Below, one piece after another: positions 3,507 through 20,424 of a stretch of DNA of 25,094 bases. Source of the DNA: Methanobacteriota archaeon (lineage in GTDB: Archaea; JAADCQ01; Methanopyri; Methanopyrales; Methanopyraceae); assembly GCA_027064305.1 (NCBI GenBank), contig JAMOPY010000050.1, forward strand, positions 1 to 25,094, read 5' to 3'. The notes below the pieces were generated by a model, which was given only the letters and a program-made list of their open reading frames with translations, was not told where the DNA came from and searched no databases. Within the stretch, counting starts at the first letter, position 1; each line of letters opens with the position of its first letter. The translations under genes were made by a program, and so were the position numbers.

Positions 3507-4709
3507 ATGCTCGCCCCACTCATCGCCTTTCTGCTTCTCACCGCGCCGGCCGCGGGCGTGCGGGTGGAGGAGTACGACTGGACCGTCACGGCGGTGAAGC
3601 TGGAGACGGGTCAGGGCGAGATGAAAGTGCCACTGATGCACCCAACGCGCCTGAGGTTCATGGTGGCGAGCCCGGACTACGGGCAGGCGGAGTTCGGAAG
3701 GGACGTGGATGGGGACGGGGTGCCGGACCACACGTGGTGCGGCGAGGTGGCCGCGCTCACCCTGTACAACATCGCGGTCGCGAAGGGGTTCTGGCGGCCC
3801 ACGGCGGGGACGGACGTGAACCCGCTGAACCTGGAGCTGCGGGAGTCCTGGTTCGCCCGGATGACGGGGATACCGGTGGAGGACCGGGAGACGGACGGAC
3901 CGATGGCCGCGACCTCGCCGCCCTGGTTCCCGACCCTGCTCTCCCTGGCCGCGGACTTCCAGGATCCCAACGGGATCGGGGTCGTGATCTACGCGCCGCT
4001 GGCCACGGTGAGCCGGTGGTTCGTCATCGTACCCCCCGCCCTGCACGCGGTCCTGCTCGCGGGCGTCTCGGACGACGGTCGGTACTTCGTCGTCAAGGAC
4101 TGCTCCGCCCTGCAGGGGAGGGATTACTCGTGGGAGAAGGACTACTACCTCGTCCCCTCCTACTCGCTGGAGTTGAACGTCGCGGAGGCCGTGGAGGCGG
4201 TCTCGAACCCGCTGCAGGAGTCGTCCGGCGCGATGGTACCGGTGCTGTTCTTCCCGGTGCCGCGGTTCGGACTCCCGGAGGACCTGAAGCCTTTCGCCGT
4301 CGGGGGTAAGGAGGTCGACCTGGGTGGCGGGCTGAAGGCGCGCTTCCACATCCTGCTGGCCTCCACGATCTCCGACGTGCTGGAGATCGCCCGGATCCTG
4401 CTCAGGCACGGGATTCCGGTCGAGTGCCTGGTGCGAAAGCCCTTCGCGAGCCTGGCCTTCACCGGTCAGATCGTGGAGATCCCGCTGGTCCACCTGAGGG
4501 TTCTACGCATACTCTCCGTGCCGGTGCGGTGCGTGGTGACCGGGACCGGCGGCGGCTCCGGGGCCAGCCGGCCCGCCCCCTCCTCACGGTCCACCCCCAC
4601 CGAGGAGACCCGGGAGGTCGGCAAGCCCACCCGTAGGCACCTACCCATACTACCGATGGTTCCGCTCTGGGGAGGGTTCGGTTGTCGGAGACTCCGACGG
4701 TCCGGTTGA
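3507..4709 (+). CDS. Secreted protein with a putative papain-like (peptidase C39-like) Cys-His-Asp domain
   Basis: Signal-peptide-like MLAPLIAFLLLTAPAAG. WCGEVAAL (Cys), LHAVLLAG (His) and FVVKD (Asp). DVDGDGVPD loop, S/G/T/P-rich linker and a Pro-rich hydrophobic/basic C-terminus. ATG at 3507 follows GGGGTGG. Confidence 0.6.
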   Translation: MLAPLIAFLLLTAPAAGVRVEEYDWTVTAVKLETGQGEMKVPLMHPTRLRFMVASPDYGQAEFGRDVDGDGVPDHTWCGEVAALTLYNIAVAKGFWRPTAGTDVNPLNLELRESWFARMTGIPVEDRETDGPMAATSPPWFPTLLSLAADFQDPNGIGVVIYAPLATVSRWFVIVPPALHAVLLAGVSDDGRYFVVKDCSALQGRDYSWEKDYYLVPSYSLELNVAEAVEAVSNPLQESSGAMVPVLFFPVPRFGLPEDLKPFAVGGKEVDLGGGLKARFHILLASTISDVLEIARILLRHGIPVECLVRKPFASLAFTGQIVEIPLVHLRVLRILSVPVRCVVTGTGGGSGASRPAPSSRSTPTEETREVGKPTRRHLPILPMVPLWGGFGCRRLRRSG

Positions 4710-10914: not shown

Positions 10915-11616
10915 TTAGAGCTCGTACGACTCGCCGGGCTCCAGGATCACGACCTCCGTGTCCACGTCGAGCCGCTCCACCTCCCGCTTGAACTCCTCCG
11001 GGTCCTGCTCGATCGGCGGGAACGTGCCGTAGTGCATCGGGATCGCCACGTCCGGCTCGATCAGCTCCACGGCCTTCGCGGCCTCCTTGGGGCCCATGGT
11101 GAACCGGCTGCCGATGGGCAGCAGCGCCACGTCCGGCTCGTAGAGCTCACCGATCAGCTTCATGTCCATGGACAGGCCCGTGTCGCCGGCGTGGTACACG
11201 GTGCCCTCCTCGCCCGAGACCACGTAACCCACCGGGGTGCCGCCGGCCACGATCTCCCCGTCCTCCACGATCTCGGACGAGTGCCAGGCGGGCACCTGGG
11301 TGATCTCGAGCCCCTCCACCTCGATCGTGCCGCCGATGTTCATCTCCTCGACGTTCTCAACGCCCTGATTCTGGGCGTGGACGGCGATCTCGTAGATCCC
11401 GACCAGGGTCGCCCCGGTTCGCTTGCAGATGTCGATGGCGTCACCCAGGTGGTCCGAGTGCCCGTGCGTGACCAGGACCAGGTCGGGCTCCACCTCGTCG
11501 GGCGACTTGGCCGCCTTGGGGTTCCCGCTCAGGAACGGGTCGATCAGCACGGTGACCCCGTCCAGCTCGAGCTCGAAGGCGGCGTGACCCAGCCACGTGA
11601 TCTTCATCCTCGGCAT
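10915..11616 (-). CDS. UPF0173-type metal-dependent hydrolase (metallo-beta-lactamase fold)
   Basis: KITWLGHA, LIDPFL, THGHSDH, AWHSS, YHAGDT, LLPIG..FTM and IPMHYGTFP. Start at ATG 11616 or 11607. Confidence 0.9.
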   Translation of the reverse strand: MPRMKITWLGHAAFELELDGVTVLIDPFLSGNPKAAKSPDEVEPDLVLVTHGHSDHLGDAIDICKRTGATLVGIYEIAVHAQNQGVENVEEMNIGGTIEVEGLEITQVPAWHSSEIVEDGEIVAGGTPVGYVVSGEEGTVYHAGDTGLSMDMKLIGELYEPDVALLPIGSRFTMGPKEAAKAVELIEPDVAIPMHYGTFPPIEQDPEEFKREVERLDVDTEVVILEPGESYEL

Positions 11617-11674
11617 CCCCGGAACCACCGTTCTCGAGTTGAGAATAAAAGTTCACCGAAGCGGGAACCAGAAA

Positions 11675-11695
11675 CGTTATGGATCTCATAACGAT
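11675..11695. repeat. Palindromic element in the tRNA-Tyr 3' trailer (copy 1 of 2)
   Basis: CGTTATG-N5-CATAACG. On the tRNA strand it reads ATCGTTATGAGATCCATAACG, starting 6 nt after the CCA. 17/21 identical to 19097-19117. Confidence 0.75.
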
Positions 11696-11701
11696 CTTCG
11701 G

Positions 11702-11779
11702 TGGTCCGGCCGCCGGGATTTGAACCCGGGACCACGGGATCTACAGTCCCGCGCTCTAGCCAGACTGAGCTGCGGCCGG
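11702..11779 (-). tRNA. tRNA-Tyr(GTA), intron-less, CCA encoded, C at position 8
   Basis: Acceptor CCGGCCG/CGGCCGG (C1-G72), A73, CCA. D-arm GCTC/GAGC. Anticodon arm CGGGA-CTGTAGA-TCCCG. T-arm CCGGG-TTCAAAT-CCCGG. Position 8 is at nt 11772. Confidence 0.97.
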
Positions 11780-11805
11780 TTCCCCGGGCGCGGGATCACG
11801 GCAGC

Positions 11806-11815
11806 TATATAAAAA
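11806..11815. promoter_or_regulatory. TATA box, likely for tRNA-Tyr (minus-strand TTTTTATATA) and possibly bidirectional
   Basis: The only AT-rich tract between the divergent tRNA-Tyr and VanW-like genes, about 27-36 nt upstream of the tRNA 5' end. Confidence 0.65.
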
Positions 11816-11862
11816 TGTATCGGACATCCCGCCCGGGGGGAGACGCGCGTGGGAAAAGGCCG

Positions 11863-13053
11863 GTGACCCCATCGACGAGCGCCGTCAACCCCTGGGACCG
11901 GCTGAGGAGGCTGCCCGAGTGGATGCGGAGCGTCGGGTACGCCAAGTCCGTGCCGGTGCTGCTGGCCATCGTCATCGGGGTGGGGCAGGCGGTCGGCCAC
12001 CTCTCGCTGATCTCGCTGCCGGACAGGCCGCACTACCGGGTCCGCAACGGTGACACCGTGTGGGGCGGGCAGCGAATCATCAGCGTCTACTCCCTACCCT
12101 GGTACAGCGCCTGGGCGCACCCCGAGTACGCCGACCGGGCCTTCCGCGAGTACGGGACGCCGGCGGTGCTCTCAGCCGTGTTCCTTGGCGTCGTCCCGTC
12201 CCCGGCCGAGGTCTGGGTGCACGGGGACTACCGGGTGCAGGGAGGCTGGATCGTCGCCGACTACCGGGGGCCCGGGGTGGCCCTGGTCCGCGACGGGCAC
12301 CTGCACGTGAAGCGGCCCGGACTGGTGGTGTGGGGCCGCAAGGTGCCGAAGGTGGTGGCCGTTAAGGTGGGCGAGAACGAGGTGGAGGTCAACGGTCGTC
12401 GGATGTCGATCGACGAGGTCGCGCGCCGGTACGGTGAGGACAAGGTGAGGTTCCTGCGGGAGGCCGGCGTCGGCGAGCGGGCGGTGCTCGTGTCCGAGCT
12501 GCGGTTCACCGACGGTCGCCGACCGATGACGGAGGGGGAGGTGCGGAAGGTCTTCGGGGAGCGGGCGTACCGGAGGATGATGGAGATGGCGGATCAATCG
12601 GCGGTGGTGGTGTGGATCGGCCGGTACCGGAAGAAGCTGATCGGCGAGGCGGAGACGACCATGGAGGGGATCGGTGAGCACGACGACATGCGCCTCCGGA
12701 ACGCCGTCCGGATGTGCCAGGGCTGGAACGGGGTGATCGTGCCACCGCACACCTGGACGCACGGGAAGCGCCAGTACTTCGACGTGTTCGAGGTGCCCGG
12801 GTACAAGAAGGCCGCGCACGGCTGCTGCCCGCCGGCCCGGGCGCTGCGGGACGCCTGCCTGAAGGCCGGGCTGCCGTGGCCCCGAGGGATCGGTCCCGGG
12901 ATCCACCCGATGGAGTACGAGTACCACCCGACCGAGGGGGTGATCGTGTACAACAACAAGCCGTACCCCATCCTGATCGAGATGGGGTTCAAGGGTAAGC
13001 CCGAGATCGGTGGCACCATTTACTGCCGCATCTACGCGCTCCTCCCCGCCTGA
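11863..13053 (+). CDS. Membrane-anchored hypothetical protein with a C-terminal VanW-like domain
   Basis: N-terminal hydrophobic segment VPVLLAIVIGVG. C-terminal WNGVIVPP, AHGCCPPARALRDA and VIVYNNKPYPILIEM resemble VanW motifs. The ORF-track start at 11701 overlaps the tRNA, so GTG 11863 is chosen; start uncertain. Confidence 0.6.
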   Translation: MTPSTSAVNPWDRLRRLPEWMRSVGYAKSVPVLLAIVIGVGQAVGHLSLISLPDRPHYRVRNGDTVWGGQRIISVYSLPWYSAWAHPEYADRAFREYGTPAVLSAVFLGVVPSPAEVWVHGDYRVQGGWIVADYRGPGVALVRDGHLHVKRPGLVVWGRKVPKVVAVKVGENEVEVNGRRMSIDEVARRYGEDKVRFLREAGVGERAVLVSELRFTDGRRPMTEGEVRKVFGERAYRRMMEMADQSAVVVWIGRYRKKLIGEAETTMEGIGEHDDMRLRNAVRMCQGWNGVIVPPHTWTHGKRQYFDVFEVPGYKKAAHGCCPPARALRDACLKAGLPWPRGIGPGIHPMEYEYHPTEGVIVYNNKPYPILIEMGFKGKPEIGGTIYCRIYALLPA

Positions 13054-13074
13054 TTTTTCCCCGGGGGAGGGTCG

Positions 13075-14010
13075 GTGAGGGATGCCCTGGGCCGTCGCGT
13101 CGACAGCGTTCGCGCGACGCTCACCCTCCGGTGCAACATGAACTGCGTGTACTGTCACCGGGAGGGCGAAGGGCGCTCGGGCCGGGAGCTCACGTGTGAG
13201 GAGTGGGTGCGCGTGCTCCGGGCCTGCGCCCGGCTGGGCCTCCGTCGGGTGAAGTTCACCGGCGGCGAGCCCACCCTGAGGGAGGACCTCCCCCGCATCA
13301 TCGAGGGCATCCGGAACCGCTTTCGGGACGTGTCCCTGACCACGAACGGGAGCCTGCTGCGCCGGAGGGCGGACGAGCTCCGGGAGTCGGGTTTGGACCG
13401 GGTTAACGTCAGCCTCGACACGCTCGACCCGTCCCTGTACAGGATCATCACCCGGTCCCGGTACTCTCCGAGGGAGATTCTGCGGGGGATCGAGGCCGCG
13501 ATCTCGGTCGGGCTGACCCCGGTGAAGGTGAACGTAGTACTCTTCCGGGAGACGCTTGAGGGCCTTCGGGAGCTCGCGGAGGAGCTGACCGACGAGTGTG
13601 GGTGCGCGAGGCTGCAGCTGATCGAGCCGATGCTGGACGCTGAGGTGGGGATGCAGCCCGCGACGGTGCGGGAGGCGCTTCGGGAGCTTTCGGATTTGAA
13701 ACCAAGGCTCGTACGAGTTAGGAAGTTCCAAAACAGGAGCGTGTATCGACTTGAGAATGGGGTTACCATTGAGGCTATAAAGCCGAAATCCGGGGAAATG
13801 TGCCGGGCGTGCTCCAGGATCAGGATAACGCACGATGGGAGGTTTAAGGGGTGCATCCTGGGTCGGCCCAGGAGGCTACCGGTGGACAGCTATCGGGCCC
13901 TCCTGAGCGCCCTCCGGCGGTACATTCGGGAGCGTGACGACACGATGTCGGGGAACCGGCGGCGGGGGGTGAGGGGTGGCCGTGCCCGGGGTCGACGAGA
14001 CCTACCGTGA
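13075..14010 (+). CDS. moaA: GTP 3',8-cyclase (radical SAM, molybdopterin biosynthesis)
   Basis: D.LGR....R.TLT.RCNMNCVYCH.EG, KFTGGEP, TTNG, RVNVSLDTL, VKVNVV and C-terminal CRACSRIRIT.DG.FKGC. Confidence 0.9.
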   Translation: MRDALGRRVDSVRATLTLRCNMNCVYCHREGEGRSGRELTCEEWVRVLRACARLGLRRVKFTGGEPTLREDLPRIIEGIRNRFRDVSLTTNGSLLRRRADELRESGLDRVNVSLDTLDPSLYRIITRSRYSPREILRGIEAAISVGLTPVKVNVVLFRETLEGLRELAEELTDECGCARLQLIEPMLDAEVGMQPATVREALRELSDLKPRLVRVRKFQNRSVYRLENGVTIEAIKPKSGEMCRACSRIRITHDGRFKGCILGRPRRLPVDSYRALLSALRRYIRERDDTMSGNRRRGVRGGRARGRRDLP

Positions 14011-15361
14011 GGCCGTGGAGGTCGTGCTGAGGACGATGGTGAAGGCGGAGAAGGTCAAGCCGACGCAGTACGCCCGTCGGCTGGTGCTGAAGGAGGTGAA
14101 CCCCTCCCGCGAGGCCCGCTCCATCTCCGCGGGCATGCTGTACACGATCATGCAGAAGCGGGGACTGCTGGACGAGATCGTGACGGACGTGCTGGAGCTG
14201 GCGGACGACGTGGCGGACCTGGATCGATGGGTGCGCAACGCCTGCCGGATCGCGGCCAACGAGGTCGTGTTCGAGGGTAAGGACGCGCGGGAGGTCGCGG
14301 AGGTCCTGCACGATCTCGTCCGGAGGCTGGACAACCCGGGCGCCGCGGCCATCGTGAAGGCGTTCACCCTGGACCTGGAGGGGTACGAGCCGCCGGAGCC
14401 GGAGGACGAGCTGGACCGCCTTAAGTGGGAGTACTACCATCCTCGGTGGCTCATCGAGCGCTGGCTGGAGATGCTGGGAGACGAGGAGGAGGTTCTGCGG
14501 CTGCTCGAGGCCAACAACACCGAGCCGCCCCTGTGCATCCGCGTGAACACGCTGAAGATCGAGCCGAAGGAGCTGGCGGAGCGCCTGGAGGAGAAGTACG
14601 GCGTGACGGTCAAGCCCGGCCGGTTCCTGGAGGAGATCCTGCGCATCCCGGAGGGGCTCCCAATCGCGGTGATGGACGAGTGGGACGAGGGGCTGTTCGT
14701 CGTCCAGGACGAGGCGGCCGCACTCGCCTCCGCCGTCCTGAACCCGAGGCCCGGGGAGGTGGTGGTCGACCTGTGCGCGGCCCCGGGCGGGAAGACCACG
14801 CACATGGCGCAGCTCATGGGTTGCGAGGGTCGGATCATCGCCATCGACGTCGACGAGACCCGCATGGACAGGCTGGTGGAGATCGCGGACCGGCTCGGGG
14901 TCCTGGACTGCATCGAGACGCACCTGATGGACGGCCGGGAGGCGCCGGAGGAGCTCGGTGAGGAGTTCGCCGACGCCGTCCTCGTGGACCCGCCCTGCTC
15001 CGCCGACGGGACGATTCGGAAGAACCCGGAGCGACGGTGGAGGATCACCCCGGACGAGCTCGAACGGCTTCCCGATTTCCAGCTGGAGCTGCTGGAGGCT
15101 GGGGCTCGGCTCGTCAGGCCCGGGGGCCGGCTCGTGTACTCGACGTGCTCGATGTTCCCGGAGGAGGACGAGGAGGTCGTGCGCCGGTTCCTGGAGCGTC
15201 ACCCGGACTTCGAGCTCATCGACGTGGACGTCGGGGACCCCGGGTTCGACATGCCGGAGGCGTGCCGGCTCTTCCCGCACCGGCACGACACGTGCGGGTT
15301 CTTCATCGCCCTCCTAGGACGGACGGGACGGGGTGAGGCCCGTGCGGATAGCGAGGCCTAA
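13976..15361 (+). CDS. RsmB/NOP2/Sun-family RNA m5C methyltransferase with an N-terminal NusB-like domain
   Basis: [39 protein letters not shown] and PH.H...GFFIA. Confidence 0.9.
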
Positions 15362-16595
15362 GGGCACCCGGGACTTCGAGCCCGAGGAGATGCGGGCGCG
15401 ACGGTGGCTGGAGGGGTTCCTGCGGGAGCGCTTCCGCTCGTACGGGTACGAGGAGGTACTCACCCCGACCTTCGAGCACGCCCGGCTCTTCGAGGAGAAG
15501 TCCGGTGAGGAGATCCTCGAGGAGATGTACGTGTTCGAGGACAAGAAGGGCCGCCGGCTGGCCCTCCGACCCGAGATGACGGCGCCCGTGGTCCGCATGT
15601 ACAACGACTCGCTGAAGACCCGGCCGCACCCGCTCAAGCTGTGCTACTTCGTGAACTGCTTCCGGTACGAGCAGCCCCAGCGCGGTCGGTGGCGGGAGTT
15701 CTGGCAGGCGGGGGTCGAGATCCTAGGCTCCTCCGAGCCCGAGGCGGACGTCGAGGTGATCGAGCTCACCCACGGGATCTTCGACGACCTGCTCCCGAGC
15801 GACGCCTTCGAGACCCGGGTCGGCCACCTCGGCATCCTCCGGGGACTCCTAGAGGAGCACGGGATCGGGGAGGAGCGGCAGAACCGGGTCGCGCACCTGG
15901 TGGACAAGGGCGAGCTGGAGGGAGTCCGAGAGCTCCTGCCCGAGGATGTGACGGAGCGCGTGCTGGGGATCGTCACCGCGGAGTCCGTGAGCGAGGTGGA
16001 GGAGGCCATCGCCGGGGCCGAGCCGGCCGAGGAGGCGCTCGAGAACCTGCTCACGATCTCCGACCAGCTGAAGGAGGCGGGCGTCGAGCACGAGCTGGAC
16101 TTCTCCGTCGCCCGGGGCCTCGACTACTACACGGGCATGGTCTTCGAGGTGCACGTCCCGGAGCTGGGCGGGGGCTCCCAGTGCGCCGGTGGGGGCCGGT
16201 ACGACACCCTGGTTCGGGATCTGGGGGGTCCGGACGTGCCGGCCGTGGGGATGGCGATCGGGTTCGACCGGCTGCTAATGGCGCTCGAGCTCTACGACCG
16301 GGTCCCGGGGGAGGAGCTGGAGGGCACGCGCGCCCTGCTCATCCCGCTGACCCGCTCCGGTAAGGTGTGGGAGGTGGCCCGGGAGCTGCGGGAGCTGGGT
16401 TGGATCGTGGACGTGGAGGTGTCCGGTAAGAGCCTGCGGAAGGCCCTCTCCATGGCGGACTCAAAGGGGTACGACTACGCCGTGATCGTAGGGGACCGGG
16501 AGCTTGAAGGAGGGTACGTCTCGGTGAAGAACCTGGAGACGGGCGAGCAGGAGGAGGTCCCGCTGAACGAGCTCGAGCGGGCGGCGGAGGTATGA
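15333..16595 (+). CDS. hisS: Histidine--tRNA ligase
   Basis: [54 protein letters not shown] and G.AIGFDR. Confidence 0.97.
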
Positions 16596-17026
16596 GCGGG
16601 TTCGAGCCCCCGCTGGACGAAGAGGCCGCGCGACGCCTGGCCTCCCGGCTCAATTACCGGTTCGAGATTAACGGGGAGCCCCTGGTCGTGGTGGTCACGC
16701 AGGACGTGGAGTCCGGCAAGGTGCTCATGACCGCGTTCGCGAACGAGGAGGCCGTGTACCGTACGCTGGTGACCGGATACGCCCACTACTGGAGTACCTC
16801 GCGGGGAGAAATCTGGAAAAAGGGAGAGGACTCGGGACACGTGCAGCGAGTTCGGGAGGTCCGCGTGGACTGCGATGAGGACGCCCTGCTCTACCGGGTG
16901 GAGCAGGAGGGGGGAGCCTGCCACCGGGGCTACGAGACGTGCTTCTACCGGCGCGTCACCCGGGACGGCCGCCTGTCGGTCGTGGAGGAGCGGGTCTTCG
17001 ACCCCGATAAGGTCTACGGGCGTTGA
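16592..17026 (+). CDS. hisI: Phosphoribosyl-AMP cyclohydrolase
   Basis: [25 protein letters not shown] and GACH.GY.TCFYR. Confidence 0.96.
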
Positions 17027-17053
17027 AAAGGCGCAAGGGATGGTGTGCTCATC

Positions 17054-18961
17054 ATGGAGATCGAGGTCAAGACCGAGCACGTGGTGCCGGACACGAGCGT
17101 CGTCGTGGACGGTCGTATCTCCCGGCTGGCCGAGGAGGGGTACCTGGAGGACAAGACCGTGGTGATCCCGCGGGCCGTGGTGGCCGAGCTGGAGTACCAG
17201 GCCAACCGCGGGCGCGAGACCGGGTTCGCGGGCCTCCGGGAGCTCCAGGAGCTCCAGCGGCTGGCCCGGGAGGGTATCATCAAGGTCGAGTTCGCGGGCG
17301 AGCGTCCCGGGCTCGAGGAGATCCGGCTGGCCCGGAGCGGCGAGATCGACGCGATGATCCGCGAGGTGGCGCGGGAGTACGACGCGACGCTGATCACCAG
17401 CGACAAGGTGCAGGCCGAGGCGGCCAAGGCGGAGGGGATCGAGGTCGTCTACTTCGAGCCGATCACGAGGACGGGCGAGACCGAGATCGAGCGGATGATG
17501 CCGGAGAACGCCATGTCCCTGCACCTCAAGGAGAACGTGCCCCCCAAGGCGAAGGTGGGGCGCCCGGGCGACTGGAAGCTCGTCGAGCTGCGGCCCGAGC
17601 CGTGCACGCGGGAGGAGCTCGAGCGATGGGCCCGGGAAATCATCGAGAAGGCGCACGCGGACGAGGACAGCTTCGTCGAGATCGACCGGGGCGGGGCCAC
17701 CGTCGTACAGCTGCGCGACCTCCGCGTTTCCATCGCGCGGCCCCCGTTTTCGGAGGGCTGGGAGATCACCGCGGTGCGGCCCGTGGTCAAGGTCACCCTG
17801 GACGACTACGACCTCTCGGACAAGCTGAAGCGGCGGCTGAAGGAGCGGGCGGAGGGCATCCTGGTCGCCGGCCCGCCCGGCTCGGGCAAGTCCACCTTCT
17901 GCGCGGCGCTCGCCGAGTTCTACGCCGAGCAGGGTAAGATCGTCAAGACCATGGAGAGCCCGAGGGACCTACAGGTGAGCGACGAGATCACGCAGTACGC
18001 CCCGCTGGAGGGGGACATGGAGAAGACCGCCGACATCCTCCTCCTCGTCCGCCCGGACTACACCATCTACGACGAGGTGCGCAAGACCCGGGACTTCGAG
18101 GTCTTCGCCGACATGCGGCTCGCCGGCGTGGGCATGATCGGCGTCGTGCACGCGACCCGACCCATCGACGCGATCCAGCGCCTCATCGGCCGCGTCGAGC
18201 TCGGACTCATCCCCCAGGTCGTCGACACGGTCATCTTCATCGAGGATGGCCAGATCAAGAAGGTGTACGACGTGTCCATGACCGTCAAGGTGCCCACCGG
18301 CATGACCGAGGAGGACCTCGCGCGCCCCGTCGTCGAGGTGCGCGACTTCGAGACCGGGGAGCTCGAGTACGAGATCTACACGTACGGCGAGGAGGTCTTC
18401 GTCGTCCCCGTCAAGGAGACCGAGGAGCGCGAGACCCCCTCCGAGCGCCTCGCGGCCGAGGTCATCGAGCGCGAGGTCCGCCGGTTCGTCGGCGGCCGGG
18501 TTCCCGTGGAGGTCGAGGTCAAGGGCTCCCAGGCCACCGTCTACGTGCCCGAGAACGTCGTGCCCATGGTCATCGGCAAGCGCGGCCGCAACGTCGAGCA
18601 GATCGAGCGGCGCACCGGTCTCAAGATCGTGGTCAAGCCGCTCGAGGAGCGCGAGGGAAAGGGGGAGGGAGAGGCCCCAAAGCCCCCGGGCCCCCAGCGG
18701 GCGGACGGAAGGGTGGTCGAGGTCGAGTCGGGCGAGGAGTTCCCGATGGAGGTCGTGGACGACGGTGAGTACATCCGGCTGCGCGTGGGCGAGCGGTTCG
18801 CGGGCCGACCCGTGAAGGTGTTCGTGGAGGACGAGTACGTGTTCACGGCCACCGTGGGCTCGAGCGGGGAGGTCCGGGTGAACAAGGAGACCTCCGTGGG
18901 CGAGCGGCTCGAGCGGGCGCTCCACCAGGGTCGGGAGATCCGGGTGCAGACGATCCCGTAA
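17054..18961 (+). CDS. PINA: PIN-domain + PilT/VirB11-type ATPase + KH domain protein
   Basis: PIN motif VPDTSVVVDG. Walker A GPPGSGKST, ESPRDL, TIYDEVR, DMRLAGVGMIGVVHA. KH motif VIGKRG. ATG at 17054 follows GGTG; the ORF track starts at 17045. Confidence 0.92.
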   Translation: MEIEVKTEHVVPDTSVVVDGRISRLAEEGYLEDKTVVIPRAVVAELEYQANRGRETGFAGLRELQELQRLAREGIIKVEFAGERPGLEEIRLARSGEIDAMIREVAREYDATLITSDKVQAEAAKAEGIEVVYFEPITRTGETEIERMMPENAMSLHLKENVPPKAKVGRPGDWKLVELRPEPCTREELERWAREIIEKAHADEDSFVEIDRGGATVVQLRDLRVSIARPPFSEGWEITAVRPVVKVTLDDYDLSDKLKRRLKERAEGILVAGPPGSGKSTFCAALAEFYAEQGKIVKTMESPRDLQVSDEITQYAPLEGDMEKTADILLLVRPDYTIYDEVRKTRDFEVFADMRLAGVGMIGVVHATRPIDAIQRLIGRVELGLIPQVVDTVIFIEDGQIKKVYDVSMTVKVPTGMTEEDLARPVVEVRDFETGELEYEIYTYGEEVFVVPVKETEERETPSERLAAEVIEREVRRFVGGRVPVEVEVKGSQATVYVPENVVPMVIGKRGRNVEQIERRTGLKIVVKPLEEREGKGEGEAPKPPGPQRADGRVVEVESGEEFPMEVVDDGEYIRLRVGERFAGRPVKVFVEDEYVFTATVGSSGEVRVNKETSVGERLERALHQGREIRVQTIP

Positions 18962-18963
18962 TC

Positions 18964-18972
18964 GTTTAGTAT
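18964..18972 (+). promoter_or_regulatory. Putative TATA box for tRNA-Ser
   Basis: An AT-rich TTTAGTA tract about 30 nt upstream of the tRNA 5' end at 19000, in a GC-rich background. Confidence 0.45.
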
Positions 18973-18999
18973 CCCCTCCAAAAGGACGGGCCCGGAGAC

Positions 19000-19090
19000 G
19001 CCGGGGCGGCCGAGCCCGGTCCAAGGCGCGGGATTGGAGATCCCGTGGCCCGTATGGGCCGCCCGGGTTCAAATCCCGGCCCCGGCGCCA
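19000..19090 (+). tRNA. tRNA-Ser(GGA), long variable arm, CCA encoded, C at position 8
   Basis: Acceptor GCCGGGG/CCCCGGC, G73, CCA. Anticodon arm CGGGA-TTGGAGA-TCCCG. Variable arm GGCCC-GTAT-GGGCC. T-arm CCGGG-TTCAAAT-CCCGG. Position 8 is at nt 19007. Confidence 0.97.
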
Positions 19091-19096
19091 GCCAGA

Positions 19097-19119
19097 ATCG
19101 TTACGAAAATCATAACGAT
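19097..19119. repeat. Palindromic element in the tRNA-Ser 3' trailer (copy 2 of 2)
   Basis: ATCGTTACG-AAAAT-CATAACGAT, starting 6 nt after the CCA. Confidence 0.75.
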
Positions 19120-19134
19120 ACGGCGGGAGCCGCG

Positions 19135-20424
19135 ATGGAGGTGCACAAGTTCGGCGGCACCTCCGTCTCCTCCGAGGAGGGACTCCGCACCCTCGAGGCC
19201 TCCGCCGCCTCGGGCAACGTCCTCGTCGTCTCCGCCCTCGCCGGGGTCACCGACGCCCTCGAACGCTTCCTCCACGACGCCTGCCGGGGCGCCGCGGACC
19301 CCGACCCCATCATCGACCGGCATGAGCGCTTCATCGCCGAGCACCTGGAGGAAGACCACCGAGAGGTCCGCGAGTTCCTGCGACAGATGCGCACGATCCT
19401 CGAGGGCGTCGCCCCCGTCCTCGAGCAACTGGAACGCCCCGAGGACCGCCTCCGAGACCTCGTCCTCTCCCTCGGAGAGCGCGCCTCCGCCCGACTCATC
19501 GCCGCCTACCTCCGCGAGCGGGGCATCCCCGCCCGCGCGTACGACGCCTGGGAACTGGGCCTCATCACCAACGACCGGCCCGGCAACGCGGACATCATCC
19601 GCTGGGAGGGCACCCGCTCCAAGCTACTGAGGGACCTCAGGGCCGGCCGCATCCCCGTCGTCACCGGCTTCATCGGCCGCTCCGAGCGCGGTCACATCAC
19701 CACCCTGGGCCGCGGCGGCTCCGACTACACGGCCACCATCCTCGCCGGCATCCTGGGCACCCGAGCCCTGATCTGGACCGACGTCGACGGGATCATGACC
19801 ACCGACCCCGACCTCACCGAGGCCCGCGTCGTCGAACGCCTCTCCTACGACGAGGCCATGATGGCCGGCGCCTCCGGGGCCGAGGTCATCCACCCCAAGG
19901 CCGTCGAGGCCGCTAAGAACCTCGAGGTGAAGATCCTCATCGGCAACTCCCACACGGCCACCGTGGGCACGCTGATCTCCGAGAAGACCGAACCCGGACC
20001 CAAGGTCGTCGCCGCCCGCGAGGACGTCGCCCTCATCCAGATCACCGGCGCCCGCATGATGGACGAGCCCGGCGTCATCGGCGCCGTCACCACCCGACTC
20101 GGCGACCACGACGTCAACATCCTCGCCCTCCTTACCACCGCCTCCGAACCCCGCATCAACATCCTCATCGAGGAGGGGGAGGTGGACCGAGCCCGCGAGG
20201 CCCTCCGCCACCTCGACTACGAGTGCAAGGTACGGGAGGACGTGGGCCTCGTCACCGTCGTCGGCGAGGGCATGTCCCACCAGGACGTGTCCACGTTCCT
20301 CGCCTCCTGCCCCGGGTTCGAGCTACTGGGCAGCGCCTACGGGGCCGTCGCCGTCAGCGTCGCGGTCCCCCGCGAGCACACCTCCCGCACCGCCCGCGCC
20401 CTCGCCGAAGCCCTCCTAGGCTGA
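19135..20424 (+). CDS. lysC: Aspartate kinase
   Basis: VHKFGGTSV, VVSALAGVTD.L, SLGER.SA, TTLGRGGSDYTA, WTDVDGIMTTDP and C-terminal ACT domains. ATG at 19135. Confidence 0.95.
   Translation: MEVHKFGGTSVSSEEGLRTLEASAASGNVLVVSALAGVTDALERFLHDACRGAADPDPIIDRHERFIAEHLEEDHREVREFLRQMRTILEGVAPVLEQLERPEDRLRDLVLSLGERASARLIAAYLRERGIPARAYDAWELGLITNDRPGNADIIRWEGTRSKLLRDLRAGRIPVVTGFIGRSERGHITTLGRGGSDYTATILAGILGTRALIWTDVDGIMTTDPDLTEARVVERLSYDEAMMAGASGAEVIHPKAVEAAKNLEVKILIGNSHTATVGTLISEKTEPGPKVVAAREDVALIQITGARMMDEPGVIGAVTTRLGDHDVNILALLTTASEPRINILIEEGEVDRAREALRHLDYECKVREDVGLVTVVGEGMSHQDVSTFLASCPGFELLGSAYGAVAVSVAVPREHTSRTARALAEALLG

Follow-up and report, generated by a model that had tools for sequence, protein, structure and literature searches.

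A palindrome behind two tRNA genes

The window analysed here, a stretch of 25,094 nucleotides, is contig JAMOPY010000050.1 (C50) from the genome of a Methanopyraceae archaeon (assembly GCA_027064305.1; 1,208,994 bases in 50 contigs, 69.8% G+C; hereafter G000). Two of its tRNA genes, tRNA-Tyr(GTA) (11702..11779, minus strand) and tRNA-Ser(GGA) (19000..19090, plus strand), both called by ARAGORN, encode their CCA, have a C at position 8 and are followed by copies of the same palindromic element. A 6-nt spacer, CCGAAG behind tRNA-Tyr (11696..11701, minus) and GCCAGA behind tRNA-Ser (19091..19096, plus), separates the CCA from the element in each case. The preliminary description of this DNA had recognized the two copies as 21-mers, ATCGTTATGAGATCCATAACG and ATCGTTACGAAAATCATAACG, identical at 17 of 21 positions, with three of the four differences inside the 5-nt spacer of the dyad. 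The copies, their spacers and these figures were all recovered here, and the 21-mers could be extended by TT and AT, respectively, to 23-mers: copy 1, ATCGTTATGAGATCCATAACGTT when read on the minus strand (11673..11695, from 11695 down; matrix score 38.3 bits), and copy 2, ATCGTTACGAAAATCATAACGAT (19097..19119, plus; 44.5 bits). The next start codons (ATG at 11616 and 19135) lie 58 and 17 nt past the 21-mers, which agrees with the distances first estimated. The strict dyad pattern CGTTAYG-N3-7-CRTAACG finds these two sites in the window and no further full copy, as had been noticed before, and has 0 matches in 100 dinucleotide shuffles. This palindrome most likely tells the cell where its transcripts end.

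Distribution of the element in the genome and the genus

tRNA genes were called over the whole of G000 with ARAGORN, introns of up to 116 nt being permitted (34 calls), and a symmetrised weight matrix derived from the tRNA trailers was run on the same 1.21 Mb. The full consensus of the element, ATCGTTAYG-N5-CRTAACGAT, is AT-rich and 23 nt long. The matrix detects 77 sites above 14 bits, of which 68 exceed 22 bits, whereas no site reaches more than 10 bits when the sequence is reversed. The element follows all 25 tRNA calls that have a CCA or near-CCA tail and enough downstream sequence, with 15 to 18 of the 18 consensus positions matched, and it begins 6 nt (n = 14), 7 nt (n = 4), 8 nt (n = 4) or 5, 9 and 10 nt (n = 1 each) past the tRNA end. 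Two calls truncated by contig ends stand outside this count; the first 11 nt of the motif are present behind a tRNA-Leu on C22 that is truncated in this way. Seven calls without CCA, obtained with long introns allowed, were treated as false and left out; their best matches to the consensus are poor (7-11 of 18) and lie at varying offsets. In two tRNA genes (C30:11026-11102 and C33:1-44), a terminal ACC with a G or C after it takes the place of the full CCA, and the element is nevertheless at the usual distance.

The majority of the strong sites (43 of 68) are not adjacent to an ARAGORN tRNA call. According to Rfam, copies are located 12 nt past the 5S rRNA, 12 nt past the signal recognition particle (SRP) RNA, 78 nt past the 16S rRNA, with a second copy 136 nt beyond, after a C/D-box-like sequence, and 15 nt past the RNase P RNA (82 bits, just below the 84-bit cut-off; E = 1.9e-23). 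A C/D-box small RNA (sRNA) is also among the RNA genes that have the element behind them. At the 16S rRNA locus (C40:12726-12985), the rRNA gene is unlinked to tRNA-Ala(TGC), a gene that is located on C5 with a promoter and an element of its own, and the 23S rRNA was not found in the G000 assembly. For the protein genes, the gene map was a crude list of open reading frames (ORFs) filtered by the G+C content of third codon positions (GC3). On this map, 28 of the 43 non-tRNA sites lie 12-39 nt past a stop codon whose gene is directed towards them, and two of the 28 serve convergent gene pairs; of 5000 non-genic positions drawn at random, 771 are placed in this way. Pfam names for the genes concerned include thermosome, McrB, L7Ae, L32e, S10, S15, EF-1beta, GlnA, rubrerythrin, PdxS, NrdD and others, and there are also several signal-peptide proteins without family. 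Among the 15 sites that are left unexplained, several follow tRNA-like 3' ends, short ORFs or small RNAs. The element is general to transcript ends and is not limited to tRNAs or to those with C8: its users are all stable-RNA genes and a conserved subset of protein genes, many of them expected to be highly expressed. The earlier view that it is positioned by the tRNA 3' end is right as to the offset, 5-10 nt past the CCA, but not as to the tRNA, since 5S, SRP, RNase P and 16S RNAs and about 30 protein genes have the element behind them as well.

The strict pattern is present in all five other genomes of the genus (5-39 times each) and in none of 15 genomes from other archaeal families, which are a sample and not all archaea; the controls gave 0. 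In two of the same-genus genomes, G001 and G002, the element stands at +5 to +9 behind 32 of the 32 tRNA genes examined, often as the variant ATTG...CAAT. Thus, in all 57 tRNA trailers of G000, G001 and G002 the 23-mer begins 5-10 nt past the CCA, most often at 6. G002 contains 83 sites of a relaxed pattern (2 in the control), and copy numbers amount to about 70-85 per genome. Of 55 G002 sites that were fetched with their surroundings, 52 are not adjacent to a tRNA and three lie behind tRNA 3' ends; 40 have an inward-pointing stop codon within 80 nt, and others follow the 5S rRNA, a C/D-box sRNA or a family of small RNAs. For 17 of 30 element-linked genes of G000, the 3' end of the G002 orthologue abuts a G002 site, among them the genes for the thermosome, McrB, L7Ae, S10, S15, EF-1beta and GlnA. 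The 13 misses do not show absence, since the fetched loci span only about 450 nt on each side. The preliminary description had staked its claim on the motif recurring elsewhere, and the scan finds it in all tRNA trailers and at orthologous loci of sister genomes.

A family of units of about 70-75 nt was encountered in both genomes (G002 L114:~330-404, L115:~350-424, L122:~350-422 and, on the reverse strand, L121; G000 C31:39728-39794). Each unit has its own TATA-like box, starts with ATGA(A/G)CTCGCT and ends at a copy of the element; these units may represent small RNAs or, alternatively, leaderless mini-ORFs with 5-12 codons.

The preliminary description did not recognize the palindrome as a described element, yet the same core motif had already been printed in 2017 (PMC5217627; BMC Genomics 2017;18:27), as the palindromic and organism-specific CGTTA(N)9TAACG found 'tRNA downstream' in M. 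kandleri AV19. This form is contained in both window copies and has 28 strict copies in G000 (0 in the control). Together with the C8 tRNAs, this agreement is the basis for naming the genus Methanopyrus here. In the parts of that article considered here, the motif lies about 10 bp past tRNA genes, similar patterns occur at about half of the tRNA genes, no copies outside tRNA genes are given (the supplement may list more), and the motif is speculated to be the target of a 3'-maturation enzyme. The element shares with it the core, the palindromic symmetry, the position downstream of tRNAs and the restriction to the genus; it differs by its presence behind all tRNA genes, behind other stable-RNA genes and at conserved ends of protein genes, in six genomes of the genus. 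The present data therefore speak against the tRNA-only role guessed in 2017. A literature search with the strings of the motif returned PMC5217627 as the only description among the papers examined; others containing both strings list oligonucleotides. One of the matches, the topoisomerase V paper PMC9489208, was discarded, the shared strings being crystallisation oligonucleotides that match by coincidence. A small-RNA study of 2013 (PMC3695527) describes no trailer, downstream motif or terminator element in the portion of its text examined.

RNA 3' ends and probable read-through

RNA data from four small-RNA runs, all from one study and covering two samples, were available as assembled contigs and were mapped on 19.9 kb of G002. 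At three tRNAs of locus L051 (tRNA-Ala at 15123, tRNA-Ile at 15313 and an intron-bearing tRNA at 18723), non-templated A-runs are found at the CCA end, 6-7 nt before the respective element. The RNase P RNA (Rfam 3718-4075) likewise ends in A-runs, at position 4091 in all four runs, exactly 6 nt upstream of a degenerate copy, ATCGTCACGGGTGTCGTAACAAA. Contigs of mRNA end at 936 in three runs of one sample, 7 nt before one further copy, and at 615 in a single run, 6 nt before another; at these ends they carry 22-24 unaligned letters. These 3' ends upstream of the element, seen in assembled contigs, fit termination and cleavage alike. Among the contigs listed, which are the longest pieces, none bridges an element; some elements fall in bins without depth, and this result has no bearing on whether the element is transcribed. 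A sub-threshold Rfam match to a transfer-messenger RNA ('tmRNA'; 33.6 bits, cut-off 47) at L051:18609-18722 proved to be the 3' part of an intron-bearing tRNA overlooked by the tRNA model.

The surroundings of the two window copies differ. The promoter of tRNA-Tyr is a BRE/TATA-like box (BRE, B recognition element), CGATACATTTTTATAT (11807..11822, minus), which starts at -43 from the tRNA 5' end and represents a motif common to 24 tRNA upstream regions. The tRNA-Ser gene has a similar box at -43, CGTAATCGTTTAGTAT (18957..18972, plus), and an ORF encoding PIN, T2SSE-type ATPase and KH domains (17045-18961) ends within this box. The first gene past copy 1 encodes a metallo-beta-lactamase-fold protein of 233 aa (10918..11616, minus; Pfam Lactamase_B_3, E 9e-33) and has an AT-rich box of its own upstream, AACTTTTATTC. 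The same fold is also that of RNase Z-type enzymes; nothing ties this gene, directly past tRNA-Tyr, to the element. Behind tRNA-Ser, a G-rich, Shine-Dalgarno (SD)-like run, ACGGCGGGAGCCGCG (19120..19134, plus), abuts copy 2, and an aspartokinase-like gene with AA_kinase and ACT domains (19135..20424, plus; Pfam AA_kinase, E 5.6e-42) starts 15 nt beyond the 23-mer. Since 19120-19134 leaves no space for a separate promoter, this gene is probably transcribed through copy 2.

A comparable arrangement exists in the mcrBDCGA cluster of G000 (C25:4748-9800), which appears to consist of several units with promoters of their own: mcrB, mcrG and mcrA each have a promoter-like box upstream, mcrD has none, and the element sits between mcrB and mcrD. 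Since mcrD lacks a box, mcrD and mcrC probably rely on polymerases that read through the element. Copies placed between co-oriented genes, such as mcrB and mcrD or a tRNA and an mRNA, suggest that the element is leaky. In three genomes an identical copy, ATCGTTACGGGGGTCGTAACGTG, is found (G000 C4:8455-8477, G002 L111:465-487 and G001 C1:1232033); its spacer, GGGGG, stands at the SD position, and its three terminal bases form the GTG start codon of a gene for an RNA methyltransferase (PF04013).

The gene ends of G000 differ in composition according to whether they bear the element. TTTTT is found within 60 nt of the stop codon at none of the 27 element-bearing gene ends and at 5% of the 280 others, so that the usual archaeal oligo-T terminator is scarce in this genome. 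The first 12 nt past the stop codon are 63% C at element-bearing ends (n = 27) against 36% at the others (n = 280). A C-rich tract followed by a promoter box, as seen past mcrG and mcrA, was considered as a possible general terminator, but a strict filter was passed by only four gene ends.

The nature of the signal

The explanation that we favour, to which we would give a probability of about 0.45, is that the element is a protein-dependent, bidirectional and leaky transcript-end signal, at which a dimer would stop the polymerase on a duplex-DNA site. A roadblock terminator was one of several options in the preliminary description; it is the reading favoured here, with a putative binder. A dimeric, sequence-specific protein would sit on duplex DNA at the element and halt RNA polymerase, and the RNA would terminate 6-7 nt before it. 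At a CCA-encoding tRNA gene with a 6-nt spacer, this halt would directly yield the mature 3' end, while the polymerases that pass the site would express the genes behind it: mcrD and mcrC after mcrB, or an mRNA after a tRNA. The position of the element, its conservation, the independent variation of its half-sites and the RNA 3' ends before it are observed; protein binding, a DNA rather than an RNA target, and termination rather than cleavage are what we infer. Whichever way the RNA ends arise, the element stands as a real mark of transcript ends throughout the genus, and one that would need a sequence-specific protein.

The bases G4, T5, A19 and C20 are invariant in the 57 tRNA-linked copies, and the arm positions 8/16 and 9/15 vary independently. 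For 8/16, the counts in G002 are 16 for matched TT, 11 for matched CC and 25 for mixed states (15.6, 10.6 and 25.8 expected); in G000, the test of half-site independence gives p = 0.47. The earlier claim that the sequence of the arms is kept, with no compensatory changes, and so suits the site of a dimeric protein, is thus borne out, and these features favour a duplex-DNA site over an RNA hairpin. Together with the position statistics, half-site independence points to a duplex site directly downstream of the transcription unit, as is typical of roadblocks.

Several observations weigh against this explanation. In tRNA-linked copies, the tRNA-proximal half has 47 deviations from the consensus and the distal half 106, the worse half being the distal one in 40 copies and the proximal one in 5 (14 against 3 in G000 alone). 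A better-kept proximal half is not predicted by a symmetric dimer; gene-linked copies show no such bias. At position 3/21 in G002, matched states are slightly more frequent than expected (p = 0.013), although many of the trailers concerned are paralogous. The RNA ends lie 6-7 nt from the near edge of the element (9-10 nt from the invariant GTTA), which is less than the 11-16 nt of roadblocks of the Reb1/TTF-I type. About 13 copies are directly followed by an SD-like G-run and a start codon, for instance those of the aspartokinase-like gene and mcrD, and the identical copy of three genomes overlaps a start codon, so that the element must be transcribed in some places. Indeed, one RNA contig starts 11 nt before the distal edge of the tRNA-Ile element and extends 350 nt past it, and some RNA therefore includes part of the element. 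The RNA ends themselves come from one study, two samples and assembled contigs. Finally, homologues of mTERF and Myb were not found in G000 (89% complete), so that a candidate binder would be of another family, although the mTERF negative says little, since the mTERF control matched none of 14 control genomes.

Some of these points would fit a processing signal at the RNA level, a serious rival that seems to us somewhat less probable. In that case the element would be transcribed, and a sequence-specific RNA-binding protein or nuclease would clamp the hairpin and cut 6-7 nt 5' of it; the upstream RNA would be released with its final 3' end. The downstream piece would either persist as an mRNA that begins with the element or be destroyed, in which case transcription might end in torpedo fashion. 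A maturation signal was already proposed in the 2017 paper (PMC5217627, as far as considered here). The fixed RNA 3' ends of tRNAs, RNase P RNA and two mRNAs are in line with such a cut, as are the better-conserved proximal arm of the tRNA trailers, the mild 3/21 covariation in G002 and the RNA contig that begins within a copy and extends downstream. Moreover, many copies between co-oriented genes leave no room for a promoter and are necessarily transcribed. Nevertheless, the inner pairs do not covary, and the sense strands of tRNA-linked copies contain 35 A.C mismatches against 19 G.U wobbles. The AU-rich stem is also predicted to be open at growth temperature (84-110 C for the genus; PMC5217627): under ViennaRNA parameters extrapolated for 1 M salt, none of the 57 hairpins has a negative folding energy at 98 C, zero energy being reached at a median of 63 C and at most at 87 C. 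This makes the bare trailer hairpin for 3' processing, which the preliminary description had offered as an alternative, implausible. A single-stranded RNA site, for its part, would not need to be a palindrome. No nuclease that cuts at a set distance 5' of a stem-loop is known to us, no search aimed at one having been made. A stabilizing G+C clamp was also considered and rejected: the C-rich upstream and G-rich downstream flanks pair no better than shuffled ones, and most 63-mers are predicted to be unstructured at 98 C. Where genes stand in tandem, the G-rich side consists for the most part of the SD belonging to the gene that follows.

The remaining alternatives are less convincing. It is improbable, in our estimation, that the main job of a DNA site is another one, as an operator or promoter element of the gene behind or as a nucleoid or boundary site, with a secondary link to RNA ends. 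Half-site independence suits any DNA-binding dimer, outward-pointing start codons cluster 12-17 nt from the element edge (9 cases), and there is a loose resemblance between the half-site and the BRE/TATA region in certain tRNA promoters, e.g. AATCGTTAAG. Yet most copies face gene ends and not gene starts, many lie between convergent genes, and the tight link of 5-10 nt to the CCA has no promoter logic. Similarly, the SD-like runs start at the element edge, so that a transcription start downstream of the element cannot serve them. A BRE/TATA mimic was considered in its own right, as some tRNA promoters contain AATCGTTA, and was dropped: the tRNA-promoter matrix gives half-sites a median of 1.4 bits, against 19.2 for the 24 tRNA promoters and -1.5 for AT-rich random 24-mers (95th percentile 11.7), so that half-sites score no higher than an AT-rich background. 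A protein-free intrinsic terminator, in which the transcribed hairpin alone would release the polymerase, is very improbable. There is indeed a dyad behind genes, and some copies are followed by TT or TTT, but a U-tract is lacking, the AT-rich stem is predicted to be stable in none of the 57 copies at 98 C, the arms are kept as sequence without any compensatory change, and the RNA 3' ends that could be mapped precede the dyad instead of following it. Hardly any credit can be given to a tRNA-specific 3'-maturation signal tied to C8-to-U8 editing, even if the element stands behind every tRNA gene at a near-fixed distance and the genus is known for C8 tRNAs (PMC3695527, in the portion examined). 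The correlation with C8 tRNAs considered in the preliminary description does not exist: three T8 tRNAs also carry the element, which leads us to reject the editing link, and so does the selenocysteine tRNA, whose eighth base is a G according to ARAGORN. Even though a few of the 43 strong G000 sites not beside an ARAGORN tRNA were later traced to tRNA-like 3' ends, the copies behind 5S rRNA, SRP RNA, RNase P RNA, 16S rRNA, C/D-box sRNA and protein genes contradict such a role.

The roadblock reading finds its closest parallels in Reb1/Nsi1 and TTF-I at rRNA genes and in mTERF1 in mitochondria. These proteins likewise recognize a sequence-specific duplex-DNA site just past stable-RNA genes with heavy transcription; RNA 3' ends fall upstream of it at a short and constant distance, and some polymerases escape termination, as proposed for the element. 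The element departs from them by its perfect dyad, by serving both directions, by its gap of 6-7 nt and by its archaeal host, in which no mTERF or Myb homologue was detected (G000). We know of no roadblock mechanism described in archaea, our searches of papers not having been aimed at archaeal roadblock termination. Archaeal oligo-T terminators and FttA/aCPSF1-dependent termination do the same job at the end of the transcription unit; the element differs by being a defined 23-nt sequence without T5 in its consensus, and does not qualify as an oligo-T signal. Nor does it resemble a hairpin terminator with a U-tract, given an AT-rich stem that is predicted to be unfolded at 98 C and RNA ends upstream of the dyad. 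The 3' stem-loop of histone mRNA, recognized by SLBP and CPSF73, is also a short, sequence-conserved dyad with a 3' end at a measured distance. In histone mRNA, the cut falls 3' of the loop, which stays in the RNA, whereas the RNA ends 5' of the dyad here and the stem is not maintained by covariation. The compensatory or wobble pairing of the histone stem-loop or of Cas6-type repeats is not seen either, only the pair 3/21 in G002 being mildly matched. Uptake-signal dyads are genus-specific short sequences that occur as inverted pairs behind genes, much like the element, which has far fewer copies per genome than is usual for such signals and a fixed distance to the 3' ends of stable RNAs. In Haemophilus and Actinobacillus, uptake-signal dyads double as terminators, as mentioned in PMC5217627.

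The motif itself being already published, the contribution of the present analysis resides in its generality, half-site independence, predicted melted hairpin, preceding C-rich tract, link to RNA ends and leakiness. Archaeal transcript ends are only partly understood, oligo-T runs and FttA being the known signals. In a G+C-rich hyperthermophilic genus of methanogens with almost no T-runs after its genes, the element is a handle on an unexplored mechanism of termination or 3'-end formation: it can be tested at about 70-85 natural sites in each genome, and a single oligonucleotide could serve to isolate the binder. The element may also serve in practice as a marker for unannotated small RNA genes in these genomes, and it could explain how CCA-encoding tRNAs gain their 3' ends. 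A bolder interpretation, which for now seems to us rather unlikely, is that the transcription of stable-RNA genes is ended by a dedicated, sequence-specific DNA-bound termination factor, a logic of the Pol I/TTF-I or mTERF kind in an archaeon, with a symmetric site. With the polymerase halted 6-7 nt ahead of that site, RNAs such as CCA-encoding tRNAs and RNase P RNA would already possess their mature 3' ends on release, which would make 3' processing largely or wholly dispensable, and partial read-through would set the dosage of downstream genes such as mcrD and mcrC.

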